Shown here piece after piece: positions 3,995-36,684 of a stretch of DNA of 64,000 bases (position 1 is the first letter of the stretch; the number at the start of each line of letters is the position of its first letter). The notes under the pieces are model-generated. The model saw only the letters and a list, made by a program, of their open reading frames with translations, ran no database searches and was not told the DNA's origin. The position numbers were made by a program, and so were the translations under genes. Source of the DNA: a virus; the IMG/VR virus record IMGVR_UViG_3300042317_000390, positions 32,001-96,000 of that record; one strand, given 5' to 3'.

Positions 3995-4036
3995 TTAGTA
4001 TACACTTATAATATACTAAAAAGTCTGAGAAGTAAA
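3995..4036 (-). promoter_or_regulatory. Early promoter TTTACT-N17-TATTAT with 8-bp dyad
   Basis: -35 at 4031-4036, -10 at 4008-4013; inverted repeat TTAGTATA-N9-TATACTAA. Confidence 0.75.
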
Positions 4037-4037
4037 A

Positions 4038-4352
4038 TTATTCATTTCTCCAAACGAGCGCCTTTTTCTTTTCATCATCAGTTAAGATGTGAGCGATATG
4101 ATGCGCTTCGGTCTTCAGTGTACCCTTCGGTGCTACAGCTTTTATTCTATCAGAAAGATCATTATAGTTTCTTTCCAACAGAGTAACTGTATAATCAAAA
4201 GCACCATCTGATAACTTCGGATCATCTAGTTCATAGTATAAGTAGCAGGAGTATAGAAACATTGTCTCCTGCCACTCTAACATCTTCTGCCAACTAACAG
4301 CTTGACATGTATCGGAATAACCACTATTTTCTGTCTTTACCCAAGTCATCAC
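4038..4352 (-). CDS. Stand-alone NAD-dependent ligase domain Ia-like protein
   Basis: YLYYELDDPKLSDGAFD matches the LigA YY-D-P-SD-YD motif; no adenylation domain. Confidence 0.65.
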   Translation of the reverse strand: MMTWVKTENSGYSDTCQAVSWQKMLEWQETMFLYSCYLYYELDDPKLSDGAFDYTVTLLERNYNDLSDRIKAVAPKGTLKTEAHHIAHILTDDEKKKALVWRNE

Positions 4353-4564
4353 GACCTCTCTATGATGTCCAGTAAACCCTTCAGGAATTCAACCTCAGAT
4401 AAAGCGCCTTTCTGTAATCCCTTATAATAAGGGTCTTTCAGTGGATCTTGCGCTGCATAATTGGTTCTGTTCCGAAGCCTGTCATAAAGAAACTCTTTTA
4501 TTTCCACTAGTGCTGTGTCTGCATTCTTAGTTAAGAACTTATTAGTCATTGTCTCTATCCTCAT
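4349..4564 (-). CDS. Hypothetical protein
   Basis: ORF downstream of an early promoter. Confidence 0.55.
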   Translation of the reverse strand: MRIETMTNKFLTKNADTALVEIKEFLYDRLRNRTNYAAQDPLKDPYYKGLQKGALSEVEFLKGLLDIIERS

Positions 4565-4592
4565 AATTAGTTATTTCATCGTCCACAGAGTA

Positions 4593-4690
4593 ATTATACT
4601 ATTATAATTTTAACAAGTAAAGTGAATTATCTTCTGGGTTACATTATTTTTTAATTTACTTGTTAGGCGCTTTCCTTTAATATAAGAAAA
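4593..4690. promoter_or_regulatory. Divergent early promoters
   Basis: Minus: TTTACT(4616-4621)-N17-TATAAT(4593-4598). Plus: TTTACT(4655-4660)-N17-TAATAT. Confidence 0.7.
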
Positions 4691-4713
4691 TAAGAAAACG
4701 GTGGAGATCACTA

Positions 4714-5373
4714 ATGGTTAAGCTGTCCCGTCCCTCCAAGATGCCTTGCGCTACTTGGTCACTGGAAGCAAGAAAAACTTGCCCAGGTTCGGTTGATCCT
4801 GTAACCAAGGAATCAGTCCCGGTCTGCGAAGGTTGTTACGCCTCTTATGGTTTCTATAAGATGCCTGCCTCCAAGAAAATTCGTATTAACAATCGTAAAG
4901 ATTGGCAGCGCAAAGAATGGGTTAGTGAGATGATCGAAGCGATCAATACTCAGAAACCCGATAAGCAAGGTAAACGATATTTTCGTTGGTTTGACTCCGG
5001 CGACATCTATCATCCTAATCTTGCCGTTAAGATTTTAGAGGTTATGAAAGGAACTCCAAAGGTTAAGCATTGGCTTCCTACTCGTTCCTACAAGATACCT
5101 AAGATCAGAGAAACATTAGAGGAAATGAAACTTCTTCCTAATGTTATGGTTCGTTATTCGTCTGATTCGATAACGGGAGAACACGGTGAGATTCACGGAT
5201 CGGTGGTTATCCCTGATCATGACTTTAAGATCAAGGCAAAGAAGTGCGATGCTTATGAACGAGACGGTAAGTGCGGTGACTGTAGAGCTTGCTGGAGTAA
5301 GAGCGTTAAGTTAATTGCTTACAGCGCTCACGGCGTTAAGATGAAGACAGTCGTTAAAAAACACGCTGCTTAG
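4714..5373 (+). CDS. GP88-family (radical-SAM-like, Cys-rich) phage protein
   Basis: LSRPSKMP, TCPGS..VCEGCYA, FRWFDSGD, HWLPTR, CGDCRACW. Confidence 0.75.
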   Translation: MVKLSRPSKMPCATWSLEARKTCPGSVDPVTKESVPVCEGCYASYGFYKMPASKKIRINNRKDWQRKEWVSEMIEAINTQKPDKQGKRYFRWFDSGDIYHPNLAVKILEVMKGTPKVKHWLPTRSYKIPKIRETLEEMKLLPNVMVRYSSDSITGEHGEIHGSVVIPDHDFKIKAKKCDAYERDGKCGDCRACWSKSVKLIAYSAHGVKMKTVVKKHAA

Positions 5374-5382
5374 GAGTATATA

Positions 5383-5958
5383 ATGAAACCGACATACGAA
5401 GAAGCACTCAAAGGAACTATGCAGTGGCGTGATAACTATAAGGATATTGGCATTCTATTGTCATTCCATGGTTATCGTAATGGTCCTGAGTATCAGAGCG
5501 AAGGAACATGGTGCTATTATCTATTACTAGATGAACGCATGTTCAATCCCAAAGACTGGAAAAAGATGTGGTTTAAACCTCAAGTTACAGATTGGGGGTT
5601 GGACTATAACTATTATGCGTTTCCTGATGTTGACTTTCACGGCGGCATCACGTTCTATGAACAGGGTGAGCAATATGAACGCAAGACAGGTAAGAAGTTT
5701 AAGACGCTCAAGGTAGGATGTGACTACGCTCATCTTTGGGATAGCGAACGTGGTTATCCTGATTATTATGATAGCGTCTTGTTTGATGCTAAACACTCTG
5801 TTACGTGTTTACTTTCTCACTTTCCTAACGTAAAGTGGAAGTGCGGTTATTCTGGTATTTGGGACGACCCAAAGAATTTCTATATTGCTAAGAATGGAAA
5901 ACGAATCCATATTAGCATGGAAGAAAAGATCGAATGGGCAGAATGGAAACGAGCATGA
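5383..5958 (+). CDS. Conserved phage hypothetical protein
   Basis: FHGGITFY..VGCDYAHLWD motif; RBS. Confidence 0.7.
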   Translation: MKPTYEEALKGTMQWRDNYKDIGILLSFHGYRNGPEYQSEGTWCYYLLLDERMFNPKDWKKMWFKPQVTDWGLDYNYYAFPDVDFHGGITFYEQGEQYERKTGKKFKTLKVGCDYAHLWDSERGYPDYYDSVLFDAKHSVTCLLSHFPNVKWKCGYSGIWDDPKNFYIAKNGKRIHISMEEKIEWAEWKRA

Positions 5959-7058
5959 GAAAGTATCATCCCGGCGATAAGGTAACAGTCAGAGCAATTG
6001 TGCGGTATAACTGTATGTCTGGTAGATTGTTAGGGGTTGAGATTATCGGTGAAGGTAATATTGATCATGTGACAGTAGTAATACCTGTCGATCAAATAGT
6101 ATCACACGAGAAGGTGCCGCCAGGACAGCCTTTGGAAAGGGATGCTGCAAGTGCGTCTCGAAGACGAAGCCGACGACACCGCTGCGCTGGCGCTTCTCGC
6201 ACCCGCCGCGCACAATCCAGGAGGAACGCCATGAGCAGCATGCGCAAGCTCGAACGCGATTTCGCTCATGCCGACGCCGCTGCCGTCAACGGCTTGCTCG
6301 CGCAGCTCGGCGACGAAGACGTTATGGCACGGTTCGGCCTTGAGGCGCGGCTCGCCGACCTGCAGGCCGAGATCGCTCGGCTCGACGCCGCCGGCGACGA
6401 GCCTGTCGCGTCGGCCGCCCTGTTCTTCGGCGGTCGTCCTGTACTCGGCCAGCGGGGGATCGAGAGCGAATTCGCCGGCACCGTTATCACCAAATTTCAA
6501 GATATCGTCGCGAAGGTTCTGGCGCGCTGGGTGACACCTCGACCCTCGCCGACCCCGGCGTGGTCGATGCGCTCATCAAGGATCACGCCTCCAGCTGACG
6601 TTTGTCGACGCGCCACCTGCGTCGGCCTTGGCCTTGACAGCCAATATGTTTACCATAATGTTAGTAGGTTTGTAAAAGTATATAAGATGCACACAGCTAA
6701 AATCAAACCGCTATTCAAACCCGGTGATCGTGTTATATGGGATGATACGGCATATAACAAGAAAAGAAAAGCAACTGTTATTGCTTGCTGTGATGATGAG
6801 TATTATACTATTGAAGTGGATAGTAAGTATTCAAAATATAATACATTCAACGTCCATGTAGACAATCTTGATCCCATGCCCAAAGAAGTTAAGATAGCAG
6901 ATAAAGAATATGCTGTCAAGTGTGCTAAATGGTTTAAATCTGCTTACGCAGCGATAACAAAAGCTGGTGGTGTTCCTGAATATGTTATCGACAGTATTCC
7001 GGCTGATGTGTTAGATAATCTTATACGGAACGATCTCCACTTGGAGTATAAGAAGTGA
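5955..7058 (+). CDS. Phage protein with two PGD(K/R)V domains, interrupted in frame by a GC-rich host-like insert
   Basis: AT-rich KYHPGDKV and LFKPGDRV segments flank about 570 bp of GC-rich DNA; the frame stays open. Confidence 0.6.
   Translation: MRKYHPGDKVTVRAIVRYNCMSGRLLGVEIIGEGNIDHVTVVIPVDQIVSHEKVPPGQPLERDAASASRRRSRRHRCAGASRTRRAQSRRNAMSSMRKLERDFAHADAAAVNGLLAQLGDEDVMARFGLEARLADLQAEIARLDAAGDEPVASAALFFGGRPVLGQRGIESEFAGTVITKFQDIVAKVLARWVTPRPSPTPAWSMRSSRITPPADVCRRATCVGLGLDSQYVYHNVSRFVKVYKMHTAKIKPLFKPGDRVIWDDTAYNKKRKATVIACCDDEYYTIEVDSKYSKYNTFNVHVDNLDPMPKEVKIADKEYAVKCAKWFKSAYAAITKAGGVPEYVIDSIPADVLDNLIRNDLHLEYKK
6116..6526 (+). pseudogene. Host-like fragment 1: 3' end of a gene (RQDSLWKGMLQVRLE..GGTP*, resembling the DUF6932 C-terminus) plus the truncated 5' part of its partner (MSSMRKLE..)
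   Basis: GC-rich, AGGAGG RBS at 6219-6224, ATGA stop/start overlap at 6231-6234. Confidence 0.65.
6524..6598 (+). pseudogene. acs: Host-like fragment 2: 3' end of acetyl-CoA synthetase
   Basis: Alternative frame reads ALGDTSTLADPGVVDALIKDHASS*, the conserved Acs C-terminal LGDTSTLADP motif. Confidence 0.8.
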
Positions 7059-7351
7059 CCCTATACTATTATTCTACAGAATATCCTAATGAAAAACAGG
7101 ATATGGATGAGTTCTTTGAGTATATTGCATATGAGTATGAAGACATCAATAGATTGAAATGTGATATAAATTGGTTGACAGAAGATATAGCAAAAGTAAT
7201 GTATTATGGTCATGATGGTTGGGAATGGTGGAAGTATGGTCAAACTCAAACCATCCATTTGTGGGATAGTGATAGAAACTATCTTGGTCATTTTGATGCT
7301 GAATATGAAGTCGAACCTTCTTTCATTACTAGGGATATAGTGAAGCCATGA
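7055..7351 (+). CDS. Hypothetical protein
   Basis: ORF overlapping both neighbours. Confidence 0.65.
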   Translation: MTLYYYSTEYPNEKQDMDEFFEYIAYEYEDINRLKCDINWLTEDIAKVMYYGHDGWEWWKYGQTQTIHLWDSDRNYLGHFDAEYEVEPSFITRDIVKP

Positions 7352-7692: not shown

Positions 7693-7810
7693 GGTGTATT
7701 ATGCCAGATGATATCATATGACAAATATGATGTCTATGGTTTTTATAAGAGTAGCAAGGTCACTGTGGAATTGGACGATAAATAAGAAAAACATTCCCAA
7801 AGAGCGATTG

Positions 7811-8017: not shown

Positions 8018-8022
8018 CATTT

Positions 8023-8712: not shown

Positions 8713-8725
8713 TCGGAGAAATAAT

Positions 8726-9866: not shown

Positions 9867-9873
9867 AAACATC

Positions 9874-9916
9874 TAGCTTTGTTATTCGCTTTCCTTTATT
9901 ATAAAATTATAAAGGA
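9874..9916 (+). promoter_or_regulatory. Early promoter with 8-bp dyad
   Basis: TAGCTT-N17-TATTAT; TCCTTTAT-N9-ATAAAGGA. Confidence 0.7.
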
Positions 9917-9923
9917 GCATCCT

Positions 9924-10196
9924 ATGCGTAATCTCACTATAACCAAGAAGATAAAATGCGAGTTTACTCCTAATCAATGGGAGTTACTCACTAATAAGTT
10001 TGACGATTCTGAACTTCGTCATGTTGTTAATGATCTAAACGAAGGTTTGGAGGTTTTGTTTAACAGCGGCGAGAGTAAAGCATTCACTCTAGGCGTTATG
10101 ATGGGCGAATTAAAAAAGTTTAAGCAGTATGGCGCTTATGACTCAGAGCCTATGTATTTTCTTGAGCGTGTCGTAAACGAAATCTATGGAGAATAA
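9924..10196 (+). CDS. Hypothetical early protein
   Basis: AAGGAG RBS, ATG at 9924. Confidence 0.7.
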   Translation: MRNLTITKKIKCEFTPNQWELLTNKFDDSELRHVVNDLNEGLEVLFNSGESKAFTLGVMMGELKKFKQYGAYDSEPMYFLERVVNEIYGE

Positions 10197-11033: not shown

Positions 11034-11057
11034 CAAGATAGGTTAAGGTGGATAGTA

Positions 11058-11086
11058 TTTACTTCCATCTGCCTTAACCTTATTAT
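11058..11086 (+). promoter_or_regulatory. Early promoter
   Basis: TTTACT-N17-TATTAT; the -35 lies in the loop of an AGGTTAAGG/CCTTAACCT inverted repeat. Confidence 0.7.
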
Positions 11087-11111
11087 AAAATCGTCTAATA
11101 GGAGATTGACT

Positions 11112-11537
11112 ATGTCTACACGTTCAGCCATAGGTATTCTTAGTGACGATGGTAGAGTGCTTGCTATCTACTGTCACTGGGATGGTTATCTTTCCCATAA
11201 TGGAAAGATGCTACAGCATCACTATAACTCACTATCCAGAGCCAAGAAGTTATTGAGTTATGGTAATGCTAGTTTTATTGCTCCCGAATTAGGTCGTAAA
11301 CATAACTTCGACAAGGCATCTACGCATCATCCTGACTGGTGCTGTTTCTATGCTCGTGATCGAAACGAGACAGATCAGCAAGCCAAGTCGTTTGATACGA
11401 CTAAAGAGTTTGAAGATCATTACGACTGGTCTGAGTATTATTATCTGTTTACTAACGGTAAATGGGTATACAAACGATCAAGAGACGAGATATATCACGA
11501 TCTAGCAACTGCACTAAATCAAGTAGAAGCAGCTTAG
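11112..11537 (+). CDS. Conserved phage early protein (MSTRS.IG..IYCHWDGY family)
   Basis: Characteristic N-terminal motif. Confidence 0.75.
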   Translation: MSTRSAIGILSDDGRVLAIYCHWDGYLSHNGKMLQHHYNSLSRAKKLLSYGNASFIAPELGRKHNFDKASTHHPDWCCFYARDRNETDQQAKSFDTTKEFEDHYDWSEYYYLFTNGKWVYKRSRDEIYHDLATALNQVEAA

Positions 11538-11550: not shown

Positions 11551-12312
11551 ATGACGCATGAAACGGATGAGGCGATTGAACGTCGCCTCAAAGAACGATT
11601 TGACGTTCTAGATCATATGACGGAAGCATCTATATTAGGTAGCGTCCGTTCATTCATAGTATCTGGTGCTCCAGGCTTGGGTAAAAGCTATAGCATCGAA
11701 AAAAAGCTAATGAAATATGATCCTGATAGACTAGCTCATACCATAGTCAAGGGACACGCTAAAGCTGGCGGTATATTTCCTATTCTATATGACTATCGTC
11801 ATGAGGGTCAAGTGGTTGTATTTGACGATGCTGACGGTATATTCGAGGATTCCGTATCTTTGAATATTCTAAAGACAGCTACCGATACAACTTCAACTAG
11901 ACACATTAGTTGGGCATCAAAGACAAAGTTCCTTGATAGCAACGATGAGGTTATACCACGTTCGTTCATCTACGAAGGAACTATTATTTTTCTAACCAAT
12001 CTAGACTTCAACGCCATAATAAGCTATGGTCATAAACTAGCACCACATCTTGAAGCTTTGATGTCTCGTAGTTATTATATTGATATGACTATGCGGACTC
12101 AGCAAGAGTGTTTGGTTAGAATAAGACAGGTAATCAAGGAAGGTTTGCTAGACGATCTGTCCGGTAATGAGATGATTGATGTGGTGACCTTCATTGAGAC
12201 CAACTATGCGACCATGCGCGAGTTATCATTACGTAGTGTAGTCAAGCTTGTTAACTTGCGTAAGAGTTCGCCAGATTGGTATTCAATCGCTAAGATTAGC
12301 TTATGCAAATAG
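11551..12312 (+). CDS. P-loop AAA+ ATPase
   Basis: Walker A GAPGLGKS, Walker B VVFDDAD. Confidence 0.85.
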   Translation: MTHETDEAIERRLKERFDVLDHMTEASILGSVRSFIVSGAPGLGKSYSIEKKLMKYDPDRLAHTIVKGHAKAGGIFPILYDYRHEGQVVVFDDADGIFEDSVSLNILKTATDTTSTRHISWASKTKFLDSNDEVIPRSFIYEGTIIFLTNLDFNAIISYGHKLAPHLEALMSRSYYIDMTMRTQQECLVRIRQVIKEGLLDDLSGNEMIDVVTFIETNYATMRELSLRSVVKLVNLRKSSPDWYSIAKISLCK

Positions 12313-12321
12313 GAGATTGGT

Positions 12322-12759
12322 ATGGATTGTTATATTGTAGATATAGATGGGACGATAGCTAATACCGAGCATCGCATCCATTACATTACTAACGGTCATA
12401 AAGACTGGAAGTCATGGCATGCTAACGCTCATAAAGATGAGCCTATTGATGAAGTAGTTCAGATTCTTGACTTAGCTTCTGCTGCTGGTATTAAGATTGT
12501 TCTATGCACTGCTAGAGACGAAAAGTGTAGAGAAGATACGCTTAAATGGTTAGATGACAATGATATTCCATTCGACGCACTGTATATGCGTAAACAGTGG
12601 GATCGTCGTGACGATGACATCGTTAAGTTTGAATTACTAGAGCAGATCTATGAAGCAGGTTACAATCCTATCTTGGTATTGGAAGATCGTAACCGTGTAG
12701 TTAAGATGTGGCGGTCAGCGGGTCTGCGTTGCCTACAGGTGGCTGACGGCGACTTTTAG
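12322..12759 (+). CDS. HAD-family phosphatase (PseT/PNK 3'-phosphatase-like)
   Basis: DIDGT, TAR, K, EDR..VV.MWR.AGL.CLQV. Confidence 0.85.
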   Translation: MDCYIVDIDGTIANTEHRIHYITNGHKDWKSWHANAHKDEPIDEVVQILDLASAAGIKIVLCTARDEKCREDTLKWLDDNDIPFDALYMRKQWDRRDDDIVKFELLEQIYEAGYNPILVLEDRNRVVKMWRSAGLRCLQVADGDF

Positions 12760-12761: not shown

Positions 12762-12803
12762 TTTAATGTTACGGTGTATTAGTTATAATTAAAATATAAC
12801 TAA
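12762..12803 (+). promoter_or_regulatory. Early promoter with 9-bp dyad
   Basis: TTTAAT..TATAAT; TTAGTTATA-N7-TATAACTAA. Confidence 0.7.
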
Positions 12804-12815
12804 AGGAGAGTCGTC

Positions 12816-13040
12816 ATGTTCAACTGGCTTTTTGGTAAGAACTACGAAGTTGAAATCGCTGATCTTAACCGTGTGATTACTAGCTTACAGAAGCAGGTTA
12901 ATAACATGGAGAAGCTGCTCAATGACATTGATGTTCCGAGTGAGGTTGAGACAGCTATCTCCAACGCCGATATTGATAGCTTGGCTGAGAACGCTCTCGA
13001 AGAAGCTATGAATCGTGCTACCATTCGGTTCCGTTACTAA
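12816..13040 (+). CDS. Hypothetical coiled-coil protein
   Basis: ORF with RBS. Confidence 0.65.
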   Translation: MFNWLFGKNYEVEIADLNRVITSLQKQVNNMEKLLNDIDVPSEVETAISNADIDSLAENALEEAMNRATIRFRY

Positions 13041-13262: not shown

Positions 13263-13484
13263 GTATGCGTGGTGGTTATTACTCCCTATAGCCTCACTCT
13301 ATCTAGCAATCAACTATACTGGAGACTACAATGCTGACGAAAGAGATCATCTTCGAAGATTTCAGAAAACTGAAGACTTCTGAGGAGAAAGTGAACTATC
13401 TTCGCTGGCTTCAGGATCAGAAGACAGGACTACAGATCAACTATGATAAGTTGATTGAGTATTGGTCTAACCAGAAGTAACAGT

Positions 13485-13528
13485 TAGTATGTTACTCTTG
13501 ATTACGTTATTATAATAATATAACGTAA
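13485..13528 (+). promoter_or_regulatory. Early promoter with 9-bp dyad
   Basis: TAGTAT-N17-TATTAT; TTACGTTAT-N9-ATAACGTAA. Confidence 0.75.
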
Positions 13529-13900
13529 GGAGAACATTATGCAACGAGCAATGATTCACGAACGAGACTACGACCAAGCATCATCTGTTGTCGGTTATGA
13601 TATCGACATCAAGTGGCGTGAGGGTCATTTCGTTCTGATTAACTTAACTGACGCTGAGATCGAAGCCATTGCTCGTGCCAGCATCTGGGTGGAGGAATAA
13701 TATGTATCAGTATTATGCTATTCTTCGTGATAACGAGTATATCCTTTCCACTGTTAAGCGTTACGATAAGGACGCAGAGCAGCATATCAATCGTCAGTTG
13801 ATGCTATGGGGTCATCATTATCCTAATAGCAATCTTCGTGTTATTAAACTCAGGAAGCGTGCTGACGCTACCGATAACACTGCTTGGGTGGAGGCTTAAG

Positions 13901-14563: not shown

Positions 14564-14596
14564 TACAAGGCGTTCATTGTTTCTCCCTGAGACTTG

Positions 14597-14630
14597 ACGG
14601 CTCGACTTAACGGTTGAGCCGTTCTTTTTT
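14597..14630 (+). terminator. Rho-independent terminator
   Basis: ACGGCTCGAC/GTTGAGCCGT stem plus T-tract. Confidence 0.8.
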
Positions 14631-14633
14631 CTC

Positions 14634-14662
14634 TTTAATGTTACTCTTGATTCCTTTATTAT
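14634..14662 (+). promoter_or_regulatory. Early promoter
   Basis: TTTAAT-N17-TATTAT; spacer nearly identical to the 13.5 kb promoter (gttactcttgatt). Confidence 0.75.
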
Positions 14663-14686
14663 TATAATATAGAAAAGGAGAGTGTC

Positions 14687-15094
14687 ATGGGACTAGATAT
14701 GTCGCTTTATGGTGAGATCCATAACTACGGTATTGGTGATGATAAGCCTATGCTTGACGGTTATCCTCTAACAAAGCAAACAGTTGAGCTTTCGTATTGG
14801 CGTAAGCATCCCAACCTTCACGGTTATATCGTAAACACCTTCGCTGGTGGCGAAGATGAGTGTCAGCGTATTGAACTAGTTGATAGTGACCTAGAAAATA
14901 TCATCGAAGCTATCAAAAATGATAAGCTACCGTTCACTGAAGGTTTCTTCTTCGGTCGTTCACCTCAGAAGGGCGAATCAGAATACGAAGAAATGAAAGA
15001 GTATGATCTTGAAGTATTCAGGAAAGCACGTAAGTGGCTTGCTACGCATAACGACAAACAGTTTCGGAGTGTAGTATATCAATCTTCTTGGTAA
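14687..15094 (+). CDS. Conserved phage protein (MGLDM..YWRKH..LHG family)
   Basis: MGLDMSL, YWRKHPNLHGYI, GFFFG, YQSSW. Confidence 0.75.
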   Translation: MGLDMSLYGEIHNYGIGDDKPMLDGYPLTKQTVELSYWRKHPNLHGYIVNTFAGGEDECQRIELVDSDLENIIEAIKNDKLPFTEGFFFGRSPQKGESEYEEMKEYDLEVFRKARKWLATHNDKQFRSVVYQSSW

Positions 15095-15106: not shown

Positions 15107-15799
15107 ATGGCTTGTCAGGGTGGAACTGTTAGAATGGTTAAGCCCTACCAAATTATTCATCGCGCAGCATTCGTGCGTGGGTTTAAGGAGGTATTGAATG
15201 GCATCCCGATGGACTACGATGTTTATTGTGACGAACGTAGAGATCGTGAGAGCTATGAGCGTGGTCGTCTATTTGGTATGGTATACCGAGGACCATTGAA
15301 AGATGGTAAGATAGTAACATACCAAGCTCAAGTAGCATTGAATGATGCTTTCAATATGGGAGCAGTGATATGACTTTCGATGAAGTTCTCAAGGTCTTGC
15401 GTAATAGTGAGATTGATGATAGAGTGAAATTCACTCATGGCGACATGGCTGGATACTTTGTCAAGAGTTTATATGGTGAGTTTATCTATCATTTTGATGG
15501 TCGGTCATCAGAATATGTAAACTTCTTCCTATCTGACTTTGATCGTGACGATTGGGAGATATTACCCTGATCGAATGTTTCCCTTATAATAAAGAATAAG
15601 GAGAATTATGATGGCTATCAAACGTATCATCGTTGAAGTTGAAGGTGGCGTAGTCCAGACCGTATATGGCGATAAGCTGCCGGACAACATTGAACTCGAC
15701 GTTGTCGTTAGAGACTGGGATAACATCAAAGCTGGTGACCCAGATCCTCTCGCCGAGGAAGAGCAGAAAGAATCTGACTCAATGATTACCTATTGGTAG
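15107..15799 (+). CDS. Three small hypothetical ORFs (15107-15373, 15370-15570, 15608-15799)
   Basis: ORFs with RBSs; promoter with CCTTAT/ATAAGG dyad at 15582-15601. Confidence 0.6.
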
Positions 15800-16333: not shown

Positions 16334-16381
16334 ATTTACTTTTCACTCTGTATTAGATATAATATAAGAGTAAAAGTAAAT
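16334..16381 (+). promoter_or_regulatory. Early promoter enclosed by a 15-bp inverted repeat
   Basis: TTTACT-N17-TATAAT; arms ATTTACTTTT(C)ACTCT and AGAGTAAAAGTAAAT. Confidence 0.75.
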
Positions 16382-16603
16382 GCTTCACTCCAATCGGAGG
16401 TTATCATGCGTTACGTTATCATGTCTACTTCAGAGATCATCCTGTGGCTTATGTTCTTCTTTGTTATGGGTAGAACATTAGCTGTTTGGGTATCATAGGA
16501 GGTTTAATGCTAGAAGGTGTTATGTATTATATGGCTGTGATTGAATTAATCACCCTAGCGTTAGTCTTTTGGCTCATATACATGTCGAACTTTGGGGTAT
16601 AAT

Positions 16604-16959: not shown

Positions 16960-16983
16960 GGTGGCTTCGGTCACCCTTTTTTT
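16960..16983 (+). terminator. Terminator with UUCG loop
   Basis: GGTGGC-TTCG-GTCACC plus T-tract. Confidence 0.8.
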
Positions 16984-16986
16984 ATC

Positions 16987-17022
16987 TTTACTGTTAGCTA
17001 TGTTTTCTTTATAATAAGAAAA
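16987..17022 (+). promoter_or_regulatory. Early promoter with the -10 in a dyad loop
   Basis: TTTACT-N17-TATAAT; TTTTCTT-TATAAT-AAGAAAA. Confidence 0.75.
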
Positions 17023-17040
17023 TAGAGAAAGGAGATCGTC

Positions 17041-18184
17041 ATGACTAACTGGAGATATACACTTCATATCAAGGATGCGTTCGTTGATAACGCCGATGAG
17101 CTTAACGAAGAGCAGGTCATTGCGTTAGCACAGACGCTAACAGGTCGCCTTAAAGCATTCGTATCTAAACTCAGTGCTAACGCTGACTTGCGTTATGAGA
17201 TAGAGGACGTAGCTTGGGAAATGTCTAACTGCACTACAGTTGAAGAGATTGACGAGGCTCTATATCTCATGTATGATGTATGCGACGCTAATCGTGTCTG
17301 GGTTAAGTAGGAGACGGTCATGATTAAGACTACCAGAGAGCAGCGACTAGCTATTCATCGTCTATGGTTACGTGCTCGTGATCCTAGCCAGAACTTACCG
17401 ACATCAGCTACATACCGTCAATTTCGTCGTCGCATTCATGCTGGTTACGACTGTATTATGATTAATATATGGGGTATGTGGATCGGTATTGAGAAAGACG
17501 GATACACTCATTCTTAGGAGACTGCTATGACTATGCCTGCCGGTGAATATTATATTGGCGACCTATGTTACGTTATGCATGACGAGTGGGACGAGGTTTG
17601 TGGTTTTATTTGTGATCATGAACGTGGTTCTGCTATCGAAGGCGAGTTCACTCTTAAGGATGGTCGTCGCTTCGCTGTATATAACACTGCCTACGGTGAC
17701 GGTGTATATTATGATCAACACGATAACGATTATGGCGTCGATGCCGGTGTTATCGGTTGTATTCGCACGGCAGATATATCCGAATCAGATAAGGAAAATA
17801 TTCCTGACGGTCACGTTCATCTGTTCGAGAAAGAGTTTCCCACCTATACCGATGGCGGCAAATTGTATTTCGGTGATGTAGTTATTGATACCGACCCTGA
17901 CTATGAGGAGGAATACGATGACGAAGCCTAAGACATATGAGAACCTCTCATCTATCACCAAGATCAAGCGTCGTAATGCGGCTTTAGCTGATCCTAAAGA
18001 AACAACTAGTCGTATCAACAACATCGTCGCTCGTGCTACGTTTAACAATCCTGTTAGTGTATTAGCACTAGGTAAATGCTCTGAGTTTGCTCGTCATTGC
18101 CTCATGCTAGGCGCTTCCGATGACGATGCTATTCAAGCAACTCACAAGTATATTCAACAACTCAACGGCGTTCAGGTAGGCTAA
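17041..18184 (+). CDS. Four small hypothetical early ORFs (17041-17310, 17320-17517, 17527-17931, ~17918-18184)
   Basis: ORFs with GGAG RBSs; 17527 has the common YYIGD.CY..TAYGDG.Y..VDAG.IG motif. Confidence 0.65.
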
Positions 18185-18186: not shown

Positions 18187-18906
18187 ATGTTTAAGAACCA
18201 GAAACTGACAGAATCTCAAGTCATAGAGATTATGAAGAATGAAACCGATAGCGTCTCTGAGATAGCAAACCAATATGGCGTTCACCGAGAGACTATTCGC
18301 AAGATATTCAACGGATCGTGTTGGGGTCATCTTAAATATCATATGGCGGGACATGATCGTAATAAAGCGAAACATAGAAAACTAAAAGAACACGAAGTCA
18401 TTGAGATATTACAGAACGTAGATATGAGTTGCGCTCAATTAGCCGCTCGTTATCATGTTCACGAAGATACCATTCGTTGCATTATAAAAGGCACTCGTTG
18501 GAATCGTTTACATCACCTCAAGAATCCAAACAGACCCAATGATTGGACTCGCCGTAAACTAACTGAAGATGTAGTTAGAGCTATCAAGAACTTTGAGGTT
18601 GATGACTTCGATGCTCTTGCTAAGGAATACGGAGTGTCTGTTAGATACCTAAAACAGTTTCGCAATCCAAACTTCCTTTGTGGTTGGAAATACATTCCAG
18701 TCAAGGGATATGAGGATGTGAACAACCTTCCACCCAAAAAGACAAATAAACTAAGCAAGAGCGATGTTATTGCTATCTATACAAACAGAACAACTAAACC
18801 AACTATTCTTGCTAGGAAATATAATGTATGCCCATCAACTATCTATGATATTCTTTCCGGCAAGAAAAGAACAGACATCACGTCTAATATACAACTAGAA
18901 TGTTAG
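18187..18906 (+). CDS. Protein with four tandem HTH repeats (HNH-endonuclease C-terminal type), no nuclease domain
   Basis: Four copies of KL(T/K/S)..V..I..(L/I)A..Y.V...TI..I..G. Confidence 0.75.
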   Translation: MFKNQKLTESQVIEIMKNETDSVSEIANQYGVHRETIRKIFNGSCWGHLKYHMAGHDRNKAKHRKLKEHEVIEILQNVDMSCAQLAARYHVHEDTIRCIIKGTRWNRLHHLKNPNRPNDWTRRKLTEDVVRAIKNFEVDDFDALAKEYGVSVRYLKQFRNPNFLCGWKYIPVKGYEDVNNLPPKKTNKLSKSDVIAIYTNRTTKPTILARKYNVCPSTIYDILSGKKRTDITSNIQLEC

Positions 18907-18930
18907 ACCTGTATTCTTTATTATAATAAA
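18896..18930 (+). promoter_or_regulatory. Early promoter
   Basis: TAGAAT-N17-TATTAT; palindrome TTTATTATAATAAA. Confidence 0.7.
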
Positions 18931-18952
18931 ATCGAAACGGTAGGAGTTTGAG

Positions 18953-21842
18953 ATGATAGACACATTCACGCTCTGGGTAATGTGGTCTGATGACGGCGTC
19001 AATCACAGTGATCACTTTAGTAGTTTATCTCGTGTAGCGTTGAAGCGTTATCTCGATCATTTCCTATCCACTCGTAAAGTCAAGTCTTATGAAGTCTATG
19101 AGTGGTCTGCTAAGACTGGTAATAGGTTGGGCGGACATGGCATGTCGGAGTATACACGATGAAGAACTATACTGCTATGACTGACGAAGAACTAACAGCT
19201 GAATTCTATCGTCTATGGCGTCAAGTCATGTATTATATGGCCGCTGAAGGCAACTGGTCGTCTGAGGCCAAAGAGCGTGGTGAAGCTAAAAAAGAGTATG
19301 CGGACGTTGAAGAAGAAATGCGCAAGCGTGGTCTTTCTGCTGAGACTACATTTTAGGAGAGTAACATGTATGATGACGACACTCAGGACTTCGCTTTCGC
19401 AGCGACTATGATCTTCCTTGCCATCGGAGTGTTACTCTGTGGGCAACTTAACTGAGGGTAGTAACATGTATATCGTATCTTATTATATGGTTGACCGTGC
19501 TTATGGTGGCCCTGAAGAGGGCGGTTGGTGGTTTGACTACGGTATTCCTGAGCCGCAGCTTGATCGGTTCGCTCGTGGTTTCTCAACGGAGGGTGAAGCA
19601 TATGAATACGCTCGTCGTCTCAATCGTCATGTCTCTCCTATTCTCAACGAAGATCGCAGAGAGGTATCGTCAGTCCTTAGTGATGGTATCTATCAGGCGG
19701 AAGTGAGCGAGGGTTATCCTCGTGCATACCCGGAACGCACTCCGCACTACTGCTAAGGAGAGTAACATGGACGACCGTGTTAAAGAGATCGTCTGGGCGG
19801 AAGGTCACTACGCCTACAAGGATTTAGTCAACCTAATTGATAATCCATATGACGGCGTCAACGAAACATTAAAGCGTATATGGTATGACGCTTGGTGGGA
19901 CGCCTTCTATGAGGATCAATAATAACATCTAGAATGTTACTCCTGTATTCTATATTATTAGATTATAGAGAAGGAGACGATCATGTGGAATGTCTACTCT
20001 GAACGAGAAAACGGGCAAATTGTATTAGAAGCTGAAGATTGCGGCTCTGAGGAACTTGCGTGGGATGTCGTGGAGTATATGAATCACACTGAGAATTGTC
20101 CCTATCCTCTATGGGTAGAATTCAAGGGAGTCGTCAATGTGGTATCTTGAAGAGACTCGTGGGCCAATCGTCCTATTATTCAAGACTCACGCTGAAGTAT
20201 TAGCTGCCTATGCTAAGTGCACGCCTGACTTCGATGGCGTCATTCCGTGGGTTATCAAGTTCAGCCCTAATGGAGAACTGCCATGAAAGGTCGTCGCATG
20301 CGTGGCTCTGTAGGTTCCGCTACAGTCTGCACTAACCTATTAGGTATGGATGTAGTTATTGAGTTCGACTATGAGATCACCTGCGAGGCGATCCCTCAGT
20401 CATATGACGAACCATCCTCTCCTATGGAATACGAAACATTCTTTACGGGATTATATGAAGATAAACCTGGCGTCGATTATAAGCCCAAGGATTATCTTGA
20501 GACTCCCGCTTGGCTTGTAACTCTGCTAGATGAATACTTAAGCGAGAGTGACCGAGTTTATGATGAGATCGTGAAAGATTTATCGGAGTATTAATCATGA
20601 CTATTAACATTAGAGGTTCTATCAAATGCGTAAGTGTCGCCTATTTAGAGCGTGATATAGCTGTAGGCGGATTAACATGGGCGGTATATAATAGAATAAC
20701 AGGTCATATCGTGGCTCTCCTTCATTCAGAAGGCATAGCTAGGCGCTTAGCAGTATCAATGAATAGTGCTGATAGCTGCTATACTGACGGCTATGATTGC
20801 TGTGAATTATGGAGAGATAAATGAACGAAGAAGAAAAGAAAGCAGCCAAGATAGCAGCTATGGAATTGCTATTACAGCAGGGCTATATCTCACTGGCTAA
20901 GTTCATCGAACTAATCAGGAACTTGAAGAAATGATCGTATATGTCTGCTACTCCGATGAAGGCGTTCTGCGCGTGTTCTCTGATAAGATTAAAACTGAGG
21001 ACTATGCTGTTCATATGTATGAATTGGGCGGCTATGTTCAGGTGAGAAGAGCAGAGGTGGAGGAATAGTCATGGGAACTAATATCAATGACTATCTCGTA
21101 TATGGTCGTAAGGTCTTATGGGATAACGAGTTCATGGACGCCTATGAGAAAAACTGGGACGATCATATTATAAATGTTATAGCTGACGGTATGAGCGGTG
21201 AGTATATCGTTATTGGCCCTATTATTTGGGAGTCATATAATCATCGTTGGGATGGAGACTCTAATACTTCATTCTCAGATATTGATGTGTTTAATCTGCC
21301 TAAATTAGAAGCTGAATATAAACAAATGTTTCGTGAGGAATATCCTGAGTATAGTCACTGGGTAGATCAACCATTCACTCTTTTTGCCTTTACTCACTAT
21401 TCATAGGAGATATCCATGGAAAGGTTCGACACGGAAAAATTCTATTGTTTAGCCTATAATGGCGATCTAGTTGATATCGGTTATCATGATAGCTGGGAAG
21501 AAGCTAATCGCTATGCGGAAGATGATCTAGCACTACAGCCAATATGGGTATTCGGTGAGGAGTCAGCTAATCAGTGGCGCTCCGTATTAAACCAGTAGAC
21601 TGACGCTCGTGTTTTCTTTATAATAATAAAATCAAATAAGGGGGAGAACAATCATGACCCGCAAGATTTTAATTGAAAAGAACGGTGATTATTACAGAGT
21701 CATCGGCGCTGTATATAATAATGAAGAACTCATCCGTGCTGAGGAAATCGTTGAGTCTCTTGTTCTATGGGATGCTAAGCGAGTATTCTTCCTGCTACTT
21801 CCTCATTGGAAACACGTAGAGACTATTAAGACATATCACTAA
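18953..21842 (+). CDS. Run of about 12 small hypothetical early ORFs
   Basis: Consecutive ORFs with GGAG RBSs (e.g. 18953, 19159, 19467, 19767, 20283, 20597, 21071, 21416, 21654). Confidence 0.6.
19930..19969 (+). promoter_or_regulatory. Early promoter with dyad
   Basis: TAGAAT-N17-TATTAT; TCTATA-N9-TATAGA. Confidence 0.7.
21596..21630 (+). promoter_or_regulatory. Early promoter
   Basis: TAGACT-N17-TATAAT. Confidence 0.7.
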
Positions 21843-22494: not shown

Positions 22495-22672
22495 CATAGT
22501 GTGTTATGGTGCAGTCTCAGCTCTCTCTTATATAATAGATTATGCATGGCTCAGTTGAAGCTAGTTTAAAAAGATTCCGAACAACGAAAAAAAGAGTTTA
22601 CTTGGGGCGATGTTAGGACTAATCTCTAACTATCGGCGAAACGGTTCGCTGGTCTTAACTGGAGTAGGTAAT

Positions 22673-28157: not shown

Positions 28158-28186
28158 TTTACTTCATCGAATTGTAGTAGTATAAT
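28158..28186 (+). promoter_or_regulatory. Early/sigma70-like promoter at the divergence point
   Basis: TTTACT-N17-TATAAT. Confidence 0.7.
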
Positions 28187-29403: not shown

Positions 29404-29477
29404 TCAGGGATAGTTCAGCGGTAGAACATCGGACTTTGACTCCGATAACCTTGGTTCGAATCCAAGTCCCTGATCCA
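29404..29477 (+). tRNA. tRNA-Gln(TTG)
   Basis: Acceptor TCAGGGA/TCCCTGA, anticodon arm TCGGA-CTTTGAC-TCCGA, TTCGAAT T-loop, encoded CCA. Confidence 0.95.
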
Positions 29478-31668: not shown

Positions 31669-31742
31669 TTTAAAAAAATACTTTACTTTTATAAAAAAGA
31701 AAGTATAATCTCCCTATCGTTAACTTAACGTAGGTGAAAGTT

Positions 31743-32699: not shown

Positions 32700-32809
32700 T
32701 AAAAATAAGGGGGTGGTTAAATTCCACCCCTTTTTTCTATGTTTTTTAGTATTCATACTTTACTTTGTAGAAATCTAAGTTATACTGGGAGTTATATTCG
32801 GAGGATATA

Positions 32810-33919
32810 ATGGCACGCGGAACGAAAAAGAAAATCTCAACCCGCTCAGAAGAATACATTATCAATAAAAAGCATTTAGGCGAAGAACCAACGTTCACCA
32901 AACCTTTAACTAGGATTGATTACGCCAATGCTTTGAATTGGTATAACTACATGTGTAACTCTAGCGATGCTAGAGAATACATTACAACTTATCTAAAGAA
33001 CATAGGAAGACCAGAGGATGCTAAGAGACTTAAAGCAGTCAGCGATACTTGGATTCCTAATACTGTTGCTTGGGTGTGTAGACTTATTACACGTGGTTAC
33101 GTGCTCCCTGTTGAACCTAGCGGATTTATTGACGGAAGAATACGAGAGACATTAGATAGAGCCACTGAGGTTAAAGAAGATACTGATACTCCTAAGATTT
33201 CCATTCAAGATAGAATGAAAGAGAAATCTCGTGAGATCATAGGCGAGATAGAAGAAATGATTGATGGTCATTTCGAGAATAACGATGAGTTCTCTCTTTA
33301 CAACTGGTTACAGACCAACAATATACCAGCAGCTTATGCTTCTTCTATTGTATCCAAGTTCAATCCTATCCTTATAGAATTGATCGAAGCCTTTAAAGGT
33401 ACAGACGATCAACTCAAAGAAGGTTATAGGAGATATAAGAAAAGCGAACTTGAGAAGCTTATCTATTTTTATAATGGAATATGCGAAGACGCTGAAAGAT
33501 ATGCGAATGTTTCGAAGAAAGTTAAAGCCACACGTAAGCCCAGAACGGTTAGTGTGGAAAAGAAAATTAAGAACCTTAAATGGCAAAAAGAAGATGCAAC
33601 TTACAAGATTGCGTCGATCCTTCCTGAGAAAATTATCAATAGCCAAGAGTTATGGACGTTTAATACCAAATACAAGACGATCACGGTCTTACGCGCACAA
33701 GATAGGGGCGGTCTACAGGTTAAGGGCACGTCGATTACAAACTTTGATCCACAGAATTCATATACCAGAGGAACTGGTAGGAAAACTGAAGATACCGTTA
33801 GGCGGGTATTGGATGGAGGGAAGATCGTCTTGCGTAAGATTATGGACGAACTCAAGACAGAAAAAGCTTTGGCATACCGTATTAATGAAAACACGATCTT
33901 ACTGAGAGTTACAACATAA
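32810..33919 (+). CDS. Conserved T4-like phage hypothetical protein
   Basis: ALNWYNY..IQDRM..LWTFNTKY..VKGTSI..RINENTILL. Confidence 0.75.
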   Translation: MARGTKKKISTRSEEYIINKKHLGEEPTFTKPLTRIDYANALNWYNYMCNSSDAREYITTYLKNIGRPEDAKRLKAVSDTWIPNTVAWVCRLITRGYVLPVEPSGFIDGRIRETLDRATEVKEDTDTPKISIQDRMKEKSREIIGEIEEMIDGHFENNDEFSLYNWLQTNNIPAAYASSIVSKFNPILIELIEAFKGTDDQLKEGYRRYKKSELEKLIYFYNGICEDAERYANVSKKVKATRKPRTVSVEKKIKNLKWQKEDATYKIASILPEKIINSQELWTFNTKYKTITVLRAQDRGGLQVKGTSITNFDPQNSYTRGTGRKTEDTVRRVLDGGKIVLRKIMDELKTEKALAYRINENTILLRVTT

Positions 33920-35857
33920 TGCTAGATTATCTAATAAAAATAATTATAGGGTTATCAGTCTTTATTTTAGGATTGACAGTCTATGCGGCTATCAAAGAAG
34001 GAGAACTGAAAGACGCCTTCGATCAAGTGTGTAGAGATTCAGGTGGAGTCCCACTAAGAGCTACATATCACTATGATCCAAAGGAAAATAAAATACATTA
34101 CGTTTGTTTAAAATACACTTCGATTATGAACGTTGAATAAAGGATATATAATGAATAAACTATTTACTACATGCGCATTAGCATCGATGATGTTTATCGG
34201 ATATAATATTGCTAATGCATCAGAGACAACGGAACTTAAGTGCTATCCTAATGATGTATTCATGAAGCTTATCGATGAAAAGGCTCTGGTAACTCTTTAC
34301 AACGGAGAAAAGAACGGTAAGATTAATGAAGTTATGATGACCAAGGATCGTCACCTATATATTGTAGAATACGATAGGGCAGCAGACGGTAACGCTCTAC
34401 AAGCAAAGCAATATTGCGTAATTGGTATTCTAAACGATGTGACATTTAACGATTCAGCTATTGAGTTTCTCTCAAAGCTACTTGACAAGTATAAAGGACA
34501 AAAGACATGAGTATTCTAGGACCAGATGGCGCAATACCTTATAATAGTTTTACTACTGGTGGATTAGTTAAGAAGAATCCAATTAATGATATTCGTATGG
34601 TTATGTTTCCTAAGATGGTAGTACATCCAGAAACTAAGCAGATGGTAATGGTTCCAATGCAAGATCTTCAGTATAAGCGTGAAGGATCTGAAGAATGGTT
34701 CTCAGTGGGTATCCATGAGACTGAGAAGCACGAGTTTAATCCCGAAGACAAGACAGAGGTCACTAATGAAAATTGAGTTTAGTCGGTATTCATCAGACGC
34801 CTTAGATGAAATTCTTAACGCTCTTATCATTGAAGATTGGCAAAATGTTAGGGATGAAGTCAAGCGTCTTAAGAAGAGTTTGAAAAATAAAGACTCAAAT
34901 TCAAGTTACAAAAATGTGTTAGAAGAAGATCTGAAGTTCAATAAAAAGGTCAAGAAGGCATACGAAACTATTCTGCGTTATTGTCTTCCTTATGAACGAG
35001 CGAAGGAATTGTTAGGAGAAGAGAAGTGCAAGGAAAATGGTCAGTAGTTGGTTCCGCTTGGAACGAAGAATCGGAAGTTATGGTAAAGTATATTTGGGAA
35101 AAGACTGGCGTTGAGCCAAAATACTTTGCTCTATATTCAACCATGATGGCGTTTATTCGTCACGCTGGAATTGATGAGAACCATCCTATTGCGTTTCGTA
35201 ACGGACACTTGATTGGTAATATCGAAAATGTCAGGAGGGTAATATGAGAAAAGTATATCTTGGTATCGCACTGGTGTTTCTTAGTTTGGGTTTGTCTGGT
35301 TGCTTGGTGGCGACCATCGGTGAGTGCATTGTACGGGATTCAACTAACCGTCCCTGTAACTGAACCAGTTATAGAAGACTTTGAAAACGAATTGGATACG
35401 CAATGAAAGAATTAACTGATTCTAAAGCAATAGATATTGCTACTTTAGTAAAATATGTTGTTTGGAGCAAAGATAAGGTAGCTGGAGGAGTAAGTCAAGA
35501 AAACGCAATGCACGCTTTATCTAGACTTATTGATTATCCTATTGACTTAATGAACAAAATAGCAGCAAAAGAATGAAGAAATTATTGGTAATTTTTTCAT
35601 TCGTTCCTTCTTTAGCGTTCGCATCAGAAGATGTCGTATGTGAAAAGAAAGTAATGGATAGTCATATAGTCCACTGTAAATCAAAAAAGGTGATCGACGT
35701 TTCGTTGGTCAGCATTAATGGCGGTCAGTGTAATGCTCCTTCGTTTCACTGGCATGGTTCAGGAGGATTTTCAATCCCAGGCACCAAAGAATGTAGTTAC
35801 GTTGGAGCAGTCACTTTATCGATTAATGGACACACAAAAACATTTGCTCCTTTATAA
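33919..35857 (+). CDS. Run of small ORFs, several with signal peptides or TM anchors (33919, 34151, 34507, ~34767, 35026, 35573)
   Basis: ORF track plus hydrophobic N-termini. Confidence 0.55.
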
Positions 35858-35860
35858 ATA
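35853..35860 (+). promoter_or_regulatory. T4 late promoter for tmRNA
   Basis: TATAAATA just upstream of the tmRNA acceptor piece. Confidence 0.75.
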
Positions 35861-35865
35861 AGTTT

Positions 35866-36179
35866 GCCGAGGTCGTTGAGAGACGAAATATAGGTTTCTT
35901 GGACGTGGGGGCAGTTCCCACCGCCTCCACCATAGATACATAGATCGGAAGTGGATGAAAAAGGATACACACACCCGATTATGCAGTTGCCTTTTACCTG
36001 CAACTATGTATCTTTGATGGGGGCGATTCAGGTTCGACAGGATTCAGTAAGGTCGTAAGGAGATCGAAGGCGAAACGTAGATGCAAACGATAACGACGCA
36101 TCTTTTGGAGTTTATGCTCTAGTAGCATAATCCATTGGGCTGGCGACTTGCCTAGAAACAGAAAAGTCTGCTTTTTTTT
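35866..36179 (+). ncRNA. ssrA: Circularly permuted two-piece tmRNA
   Basis: Acceptor piece ends GTGGG-GGCAGTT-CCCAC-CGCCTCC-ACCA (35932). Coding piece starts GGGGGCG (36019), giving G3-U70. Tag frame 36083-36130 reads ANDNDASFGVYALVA*, followed by a pseudoknot and T-tract. Confidence 0.93.
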
Positions 36180-36194
36180 ATTTAAAGGATTGGT

Positions 36195-36566
36195 ATGGCT
36201 AATTGTATTGATTGTGGCGTTAAACTTACATCAAAAAACGCACATAAGAAAAAACAAGATTCTAAAGCTTTTGAATCGCGTTGTAAATCATGTACCAATA
36301 AAAAACGACATCAAGCTATTACTAAATTAAAACTGAAAGCCATTGATTATCTTGGTGGTAAGTGTAGTAATTGTGGGTATGATAAGTTTTATGGTGCTTT
36401 AGATTTTCATCATGTTAATCCATCAGAAAAAGAACATAGTTGGGGAACTTTGAGGAATCGTAATTGGGAATATATAAAAGAAGAATTGGATAAATGTATT
36501 TGTCTTTGTTCTAACTGTCATAGAGAATTACATCATCAATTACATCTAAATGGAACTAACGATTAA
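36195..36566 (+). CDS. Free-standing HNH endonuclease
   Basis: CSNCGY..LDFHH..CICLCSNCHRELH plus N-terminal CxxC pairs. Confidence 0.85.
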   Translation: MANCIDCGVKLTSKNAHKKKQDSKAFESRCKSCTNKKRHQAITKLKLKAIDYLGGKCSNCGYDKFYGALDFHHVNPSEKEHSWGTLRNRNWEYIKEELDKCICLCSNCHRELHHQLHLNGTND

Positions 36567-36607
36567 CAGGTTTACTTTTTTCTCTATCGTAGTAGATTAT
36601 ATCTAAC

Positions 36608-36684
36608 GATTCCGTAGCTCAGCTGGATAGAGCAACTGCCTTCTAAGCAGTAGGTCATTGGTTCGAATCCAATCGGAATCGCCA
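36608..36684 (+). tRNA. tRNA-Arg(TCT)
   Basis: GATTCCG/CGGAATC acceptor, ACTGC-CTTCTAA-GCAGT anticodon arm, CCA. Confidence 0.95.

Follow-up and report, generated by a model that had tools for sequence, protein, structure and literature searches.

Stem-loops around the -10 box of early promoters in an uncultured freshwater T4-like phage: probable PeSL-type cassettes with a register of their own

Introduction

Why does a family of early phage promoters carry inverted repeats around its -10 box, with arms that change from promoter to promoter? The question is raised by a window of 64,000 nucleotides, positions 32001-96000 of the 168,653 bp (~168.6 kb) IMG/VR record IMGVR_UViG_3300042317_000390 of an uncultured virus, in which an initial sequence-only reading had seen a DNA-structure code, that is, a hairpin or cruciform over the -10/start region that would pre-melt the promoter, allow initiation on both strands or serve as a recombination site for the shuffling of small genes. 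The arms are present where that reading had placed them in 10/10 cited sites. The analysis presented here suggests that the stem-loops around the -10 box are real and on balance probably represent promoter-early stem-loop (PeSL) type cassettes of a divergent freshwater T4-like phage rather than a new DNA-structure code. The stems are weaker and less uniform than first stated and their kind has already been published as PeSL. Particular to this phage is the combination of weak AT-rich stems with a preferred register whereby the cassette's short leader serves as the right arm.

A family of early promoter cassettes

The motif T(T/A)(T/G)A(A/C)T-N16-18-TAT(A/T)AT ahead of a Shine-Dalgarno (SD) sequence and a start codon recurs in at least 14 cassettes of the span, which bears out the earlier claim of more than 12 promoters, and sigma-70-like sites between 3500 and 23400 number 92 vs 53.2 +/- 7.5 in shuffles (~1.7x). 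Scanned over viral contigs, a 15-base family motif was unspecific, with 119+ single matches. Each cassette is a module of ~55-75 bp that separates two small early genes, from the first one's stop codon to the SD/ATG of the second; AGGAG as SD is present at nearly all early genes. In a core subfamily, GTTAC follows the -35 box, the spacer holds TGTATT/TTGATT, T-A-T-A occupies +11..+14 (with the first T of the -10 box as reference), and an A/G-rich leader is followed by AGGAG and ATG. Cassettes resemble each other at 40-69% identity (ungapped, 66 nt) vs a background of 26 +/- 5.5%, one pair matching at 91% across 34 nt, and form a homologous family. Upstream of the -35 box, positions -32..-28 are ~75-80% A+T in 30 promoters vs ~61% in the genome region, a modest signal.

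With respect to the -10 dyads, the predicted start site, ~12 nt past the first T of the -10 box, marks the beginning of the right arm, which stops 0-4 nt ahead of the SD or overlaps it, while the left arm spans ~-18..-10 in promoter numbering and lies upstream of the expected +1, as had been noted before. Consequently, the cassette's own RNA is predicted to carry the right arm only.

Stem positions vary in this phage from upstream of the -35 box to around it, around the whole promoter and over the -10 box. Of the five PeSL stem-loop positions distinguished by Arbiol et al. (2010), the commonest lie between -35 and -10 or overlap the -10 box (PMC2839356), and Comeau, Arbiol and Krisch (2014) placed the PST/T4 stem-loops just upstream of the promoter (PMC4122927). 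The varied positions found here fit most of the five positional subclasses (PMC2839356). Dyads of a second class lie around the -35 box (Table 1) and are found with score >=6 at axis -24..-18 in 5/30 promoters vs 1.1 expected from partner swaps (both defined below); they account for the GTTAC conserved after the -35 box. GC-rich terminators at 14596, 16960 and 21922 stand upstream of promoters. The -10 dyads that score highest, four with >=8, belong to internal promoters that all lack such a terminator upstream.

In a second promoter subfamily, also listed in Table 1, a downstream box is conserved, TATAAT(N)ACTC(C)TGTGG, together with a short palindrome, AGTA-TAAT-TACT / AGTAT-A-ATACT.

Excess, axis and covariation of the dyads

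For the statistics, 30 promoters were chosen genome-wide by hexamers, spacing and downstream gene start, with dyads ignored, and the best gapless stem was scored at each possible axis, given as distance from the first T of the -10 box. At axis +3..+9, 8/30 promoters score >=6, while most other axis windows give 0-2 and +20..+26 gives 5. When the flanks are shuffled under preservation of composition and -10 box, 2.1 such dyads are expected instead of 8 (p<0.0005) and 0.21 instead of 3 with score >=8 (p=0.001); the comparison with composition-matched shuffles, which the sequence-only reading had named as a possible refutation, does not refute the observation. When the left half of one promoter is joined to the right half of another, which preserves position-specific composition, the expectation rises to 4.4 for score >=6 (p=0.05) and 0.62 for score >=8 (p=0.024).

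Approximately 40% of the excess over composition arises from the family consensus. Column counts place the TAT of the -10 box opposite a conserved TATA 5 nt downstream and the T/C-rich spacer opposite the A/G-rich leader, and as this TATA is self-complementary and spacer and leader face each other in the same manner, part of the dyad excess is built into the consensus. In an alignment of 13 members at axis +7, 72% of the cells are paired vs 66% after column shuffling (3/500), slid registers giving 44-58%, and double-sided changes number 8 vs 3.2 (1/500). The covariation is real yet modest, and the consensus to which it is added is two-thirds palindromic by itself.

The fixed geometry proposed earlier holds for approximately half of the family, with an axis of +6 to +7 for the -10 boxes at 9897, 12784, 13508, 15585, 19953 and 4013 and for one alternative dyad at 17010, and fails for the remaining members with axes at 0, +2.5 or +4.5. 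The arms do differ among promoters, so that a single operator cannot account for the set, as had been argued; their variety was partly overstated, as one sequence underlies three of the best arms in variant form. For the dyads at 19949 and 36586, folding does not surpass that of shuffles (Table 1).

The same phenomenon in RB49 and T4

Among 22 RB49 promoters subjected to the same pipeline, GGGGATC...GATCCCC spacer stems occupy axis -12..-6 in 7/22, two stems overlap the -10 box (GGGGATAT-agcata-ATATCCCC and GGGTGTAT-atcata-ATACACCC, axis ~+0.5) and none is found at axis +3..+9. T4 (NC_000866, first 76 kb) possesses early promoters with covarying arms of 6-13 bp, the sequences of which are all different and which hold the -10 box in the loop; at axis -1..+3, 5/29 score >=6 vs 0.5 by partner swaps and 3 score >=8 vs 0.11. 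The stem at the T4 regB promoter extends to the SD. A review of T4 transcription does not mention early-promoter -10 dyads (PMC2988021).

Energetics and the level of action

As RNA, the -10 dyads fold with -3.5 to -7.3 kcal/mol, as single-stranded DNA with -1.3 to -5.7 kcal/mol and loops of 7-9 nt, weak hairpins which make cruciform pre-melting unlikely. Since a U-tract is missing, the dyads are predicted to be poor at intrinsic termination, and their effect on upstream transcription would be at most a weak attenuation. Taken together, the cassettes show more structure than their shuffles (p=0.02).

The SD has a predicted accessibility of 0.72 in transcripts from the own promoter and of 0.28 in read-through RNA, with 0.42 vs 0.03 for the promoter at 9897. 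A stem abuts the SD in 7/20 of the promoter-associated starts and in 8/93 of the other starts (Fisher p=0.005), a concentration that is partly due to the compact geometry of the cassette. Masking of the SD in read-through RNA beyond chance is in these predictions a trend only. A raw asymmetry of sense over antisense folding (p=0.01) is lost after composition control, and counts of G.U vs A.C mismatches (10 vs 10) are uninformative; the sequence alone does not decide between a role at the RNA and at the DNA level. The cassette with the -10 box at 15585-15590 was anchored 2 nt off in the analyses of read-through folds, SD accessibility, dyad positions, SD-abutting stems, sense/antisense folding and cassette identity, which leaves the conclusions unaffected.

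The hyperplastic region and its relatives

Baseplate wedge proteins (PHROG 219, E 3e-163) assign the phage to the T4-type myoviruses. It is remote from all annotated phages, the closest gp6 being that of Caulobacter phage Cr30 with 37% identity, and no match was found at the nucleotide level. Its early region at 4.7-22 kb is a run of small genes on the + strand, most of them without family match, and as in PeSL genomes the cassettes are clustered among the small ORFan genes of this hyperplastic region.

Fourteen metagenome contigs from freshwater encode a PNKP-phosphatase 79-89% identical to the protein of 12322-12759, and the gene pair of P-loop ATPase and PNKP-phosphatase (11551-12759) is the only syntenic anchor across the 14 contigs. 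In these relatives, homologs of the neighbouring small genes differ in order and orientation and frequently have no cassette. Downstream of the PNKP gene, homology ends at the stop codon/cassette, but the relatives are no more than ~80% identical in protein. Promoters of the metagenome relatives are of the TTGACT type with small dyads in the spacer or with an axis of ~+6, e.g. GGTATA-N6-TATACC, while relatives of the ATPase in viral contigs (44-49% identity) have canonical TTGACA promoters and lack orthologous cassettes. These observations fit a hyperplastic region with cassette-level exchange, the divergence being too great to prove that exchange takes place at the cassettes.

Individual cassettes and neighbouring genes

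Table 1. Early cassettes, promoter dyads and related promoters (window positions unless another sequence is named; z, z score of folding against shuffles)
Feature	Position	Strand	Promoter elements	Dyad (position; axis)	Folding and remarks
Cassette m4013	3977-4036	-	-35 TTTACT (4036-4031), -10 TATTAT (4013-4008)	TTAGTATA-N9-TATACTAA (3995-4019; axis +6)	RNA -6.8 kcal/mol, z -2.6; SD GGAG, GTG at 3979
Cassette p4678	4655-4716	+	TTTACT-N17-TAATAT, CTTTCCTT spacer	no strong -10 dyad	divergent from minus-strand promoter at 4621-4593
Cassette p9897	9874-9926	+	TAGCTT-N17-TATTAT, -10 at 9897-9902	TCCTTTAT-N9-ATAAAGGA (9892-9916; axis +7)	RNA -7.3 kcal/mol, z -4.2; right arm takes in AAGGA of SD; ATG 9924
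Cassette p11081	11041-11114	+	TTTACT-N17-TATTAT	no -10 dyad; strong 13-bp stem GGTTAAGGTGGAT.../...CATCTGCCTTAACC encloses -35 (11041-11079)	read-through fold -21.1 kcal/mol
Cassette p12784	12762-12818	+	TTTAAT-N16-TATAAT, -10 at 12784-12789	TTAGTTATA-N7-TATAACTAA (12779-12803; axis +7)	RNA -5.7 kcal/mol, z -4.5; stops 1 nt short of AGGAG; ATG 12816; adjoins PNKP-phosphatase gene, its TAG stop directly ahead of -35 at 12762
Cassette p13508	13476-13541	+	TAGTAT-N17-TATTAT, -10 at 13508-13513	TTACGTTAT-N9-ATAACGTAA (13502-13528; axis +7)	RNA -7.1 kcal/mol, z -3.4; abuts GGAG; ATG 13539; second dyad around -35
-35 dyad of p13508	13476-13496			AGTAACA-N7-TGTTACT	brackets -35
Classical layout	14596-14689	+	TTTAAT-N17-TATTAT, -10 at 14657-14662	trivial inner palindromes plus TCCTTT...AAAGGA only	preceded by GC-rich terminator 14596-14623
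Cassette	15560-15613	+	-10 TATAAT at 15585-15590, -35 weak	CCTTAT-N8-ATAAGG (15582-15601; axis +6.5)	RNA -5.2 kcal/mol, z -3.0; right arm overlaps SD
46-nt hairpin around whole promoter	16335-16380	+	-35 within left arm; -10 (16358-16363) in loop	TTTACTTTTCACTCT...AGAGTAAAAGTAAA	RNA -16.8 kcal/mol, z -5.5; DNA -10.5
Terminator, then promoter	16960-17043	+	terminator 16960-16975; TTTACT-N17-TATAAT, -10 at 17010-17015	TTTTCTT-TATAAT-AAGAAAA (17003-17022), -10 in loop	RNA -5.5 kcal/mol, z -4.9
Alternative dyad at 17010 promoter				TTTCTTTAT-N9-ATAGAGAAA (axis +7)	one T.G pair
Cassette p18919	18882-18955	+	-35 TAGAAT; -10 TATTAT (18919-18924)	-10 within palindrome TTTATTATAATAAA
-35 dyad of p18919	18882-18908			GTCTAA-N15-TTAGAC	brackets -35
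Cassette p19953	19923-19985	+	TAGAAT-N17-TATTAT, -10 at 19953-19958	TCTATA-N9-TATAGA (19949-19969; axis +6)	dyad alone z -0.9, not significant; spacer CTCCT able to pair with AGGAG SD
-35 dyad of p19953	19923-19939			TAACAT-N5-ATGTTA	brackets -35
Cassette p21619	21596-21656	+	TAGACT-N17-TATAAT	imperfect dyad only
Weak candidate, doubtful promoter	22586-22640	+	TTTACT-N17-TAATCT	5-bp dyad GTTAG-N9-CTAAC	by eye only
tRNA-Arg promoter	36571-36610	+	TTTACT-N16-TAGATT	bulged, ATCGT(AG)TAGAT/ATCTAACGAT (36586-36610)	RNA -5.3 kcal/mol, z -1.3, not significant; final 3 nt = first 3 nt of tRNA-Arg (36608-36684)
-35 dyad	38888-38914			CCGTAAAA-N11-TTTTACGG	brackets -35
Second promoter subfamily	4593-4621	-
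Second promoter subfamily	28158-28186	+
Second promoter subfamily	genome 136130-136158	-
T4 -10 sites with dyads	NC_000866: ~65775, 57966, 20588, 7191, 70335, 69943, 62773

The hairpin around the whole promoter at 16335 is followed by GGAGG-led mini-ORFs (open reading frames) of 30 amino acids (16406-16498) and 38 amino acids (16486-16602), the two products of which resemble small hydrophobic peptides. Situated among the early cassettes, 18187-18906 encodes a 239-amino-acid multi-helix-turn-helix protein with matches to HTH_28, HTH_23, CENP-B_N, Mor-like and sigma-70 r4-like domains, a candidate early transcription regulator as judged from these matches. ARAGORN called a permuted tmRNA at 35840-36221 with the tag ANDNDASFGVYALVA, tRNA-Gln at 29404-29477 and tRNA-Arg, which begins 8-10 nt downstream of a family promoter. 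RegB, AsiA and MotA gave no Pfam matches genome-wide, but the control genomes were equally silent, so that their absence is not established; the idea that RegB cuts at GGAG and leaves a 3' protective hairpin was dropped.

Discussion

The role of the stems is most likely an action on read-through RNA and/or the provision of homology for gene exchange. The inner arms are formed by two conserved, naturally complementary boxes, the TAT of the -10 box and the TATA at the predicted start site, and the outer 2-5 pairs are contributed by free positions, with the spacer at ~-18..-13 facing the first 4-9 transcribed bases up to the SD. The stem would act on single strands generated by passage through the cassette, for which read-through RNA from upstream promoters is the likeliest substrate: such RNA would hold both arms and fold beside or over the ribosome-binding site (RBS), while RNA from the cassette's own promoter, with the right arm only, would stay open. 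As a result, cassettes would be insulated from each other by attenuation and/or by lowered translation of read-through RNA, and the conserved cassette sequence would offer homology for the exchange of small genes. A further step, that the stem has been shifted such that its right arm equals the 8-10-nt leader and provides every internal early promoter genome-wide with a built-in switch which restricts translation to transcripts of the own promoter, is unlikely; if true, it would generalize the mechanism of T4 gene e and I-TevI, and termination would no longer be the sole function of PeSL stems.

Several observations weigh against assigning the stems to functional PeSL-type cassettes. The excess over partner swaps is marginal, with p 0.02-0.07, and three of the best arms (at 3995, 12779 and 13502) are versions of TTA(G/CG)T(T)ATA that differ by indels, each compensated on both sides. 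The stems are AT-rich, weak and without U-tract, whereas the G(n)-loop-C(n) stems of RB49 are GC-rich and have been shown to terminate. In read-through RNA, the SD accessibility of 0.28 compares with 0.39 for shuffled and 0.32 for swapped upstream sequence, and promoter-associated genes with 0.26 differ from other early genes with 0.39 only at p=0.07. After composition control, sense and antisense folding show no asymmetry (z -1.14 vs -1.11), and hence nothing shows that the structure is read as RNA. Finally, the relatives are too distant for orthologous promoters to be compared.

A serious rival in the light of these points, possible if somewhat doubtful, is that the dyads are a functionless by-product of a symmetric consensus (TATWAT, TATA start box, pyrimidine spacer, purine leader) and of the spread of paralogous cassettes, with templated correction of quasi-palindromes during replication, a process known from T4 genetics, lengthening the arms without selection. 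Such an origin would account for the 4.4 of 8 dyads that partner swaps already yield, the 66% pairing left by column shuffles, the T-A-T-A box conserved at +11..+14, the descent of the three best arms from one sequence, the two dyads that fold like shuffles and the frequent lack of any cassette at homologous genes of relatives. It accounts less readily for the double-sided changes and the dyads of score >=8 (3 vs 0.62), and the covarying promoter dyads of T4, with arms of up to 13 bp and 5 vs 0.5 dyads, are strongly selected, so that, for the lineage overall, an origin by neutral processes alone is less likely. A warning for annotation follows: the dyads around strong promoters rich in A+T arise in part from the consensus by itself.

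A DNA-level hairpin or cruciform spanning the -10/start region that pre-melts or gates the promoter, or is a target for structure-specific recombination, would agree with the strand-neutral symmetry and with arms whose extent is approximately that of the DNA melted in the open complex; Horwitz and Loeb reportedly found in 1988 that a superhelix-driven cruciform at the -10 box can regulate a synthetic E. coli promoter. PeSL crossovers, moreover, have been mapped inside or next to the stem-loop (PMC2839356). The gain from two DNA hairpins of the strength given above, with AT-rich arms of 6-9 bp, would however be far exceeded by the cost of extrusion, the symmetry is largely that of the consensus and the geometry is variable both in the family and across T4-type phages, so that the code originally envisaged is highly unlikely. 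For a subset of the promoters, TTAGTATA-N9-TATACTAA, TTAGTTATA-N7-TATAACTAA and TTACGTTAT-N9-ATAACGTAA could be read as operator of a dimeric phage regulator, given three similar arm pairs with outer ends 25-27 bp apart and the multi-helix-turn-helix protein encoded nearby; with no paired copies in 168 kb beyond these three sites, half-site spacing shifted by indels within the arms and unrelated arms in the other members, the chance of this is slight. Least credible is the notion of symmetric bidirectional promoters with a shared -10 box firing on both strands. Divergent initiation from symmetric -10 elements is known in bacteria, as reportedly described by Warman et al. in 2021, and several loops hold TATAAT-like hexamers on both strands, but the genes at 4.7-22 kb all lie on the + strand and leave no opposite-strand gene to serve, a suitably spaced -35-like element is by eye missing on the other strand, and such symmetry has no need of outer arms.

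Comparison with known systems

The hairpin promoters of phage N4 comprise 5-7-bp stems with 3-nt loops and conserved sequence that are recognized by the virion polymerase on a single-stranded template. The association of a promoter with a hairpin-forming inverted repeat is common to both phages, but the parallel drawn earlier goes no further, as the promoters described here possess ordinary -35/-10 hexamers, 7-9-nt loops rather than loops of 3 nt, and variable arms instead of a conserved hairpin sequence.

A geometrical likeness exists to T4 genes e, soc, 49 and I-TevI, where the promoter lies within the 5' arm of an RBS-sequestering hairpin (PMC3014915). As in e, soc and I-TevI, the own transcript would, from the predicted +1, lack the 5' arm, and upstream transcripts would carry both arms. 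Those T4 genes, though, have late promoters and stable stems that bury SD/AUG and have been tested experimentally, whereas here early promoters are combined with weak stems mostly abutting the SD, and a specific masking has no statistical support. With the T4 early promoters (TTTAC(A/T)-N17-TATAAT) the phage shares covarying, sequence-diverse inverted repeats at a preferred position to the -10 box; in T4, in contrast, the -10 box lies in the loop, the arms are longer and the excess over partner swaps is far stronger.

The closest parallel, already suggested by the sequence-only reading and apt, is with the PeSL cassettes, which are likewise intergenic modules of stop codon, AT-rich stretch, sigma-70-like promoter and SD/ATG with an embedded stem-loop of variable sequence, clustered among small ORFan genes in copies similar enough for homologous exchange. 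That PeSLs lack the geometry, as that reading held, is contradicted by the listed stems overlapping the -10 box (PMC2839356) and by the dyads of T4 with the -10 box in the loop. A difference from the RB49 PeSLs is that the right arm here is the cassette's own 5' leader. PeSL-type cassettes, which are thought to drive modular gene shuffling, would reach into a very distant uncultured freshwater lineage. Each lineage has its own preferred stem register relative to the -10 box, ~-9 in RB49 with two stems at +0.5, ~+1 in T4 and ~+6.5 here, and only this exact axis sets the phage apart from the others. Together with the covariation in T4, the lineage-specific register makes the function of the stems testable, the candidates being attenuation, recombination and control of the RBS in read-through RNA.

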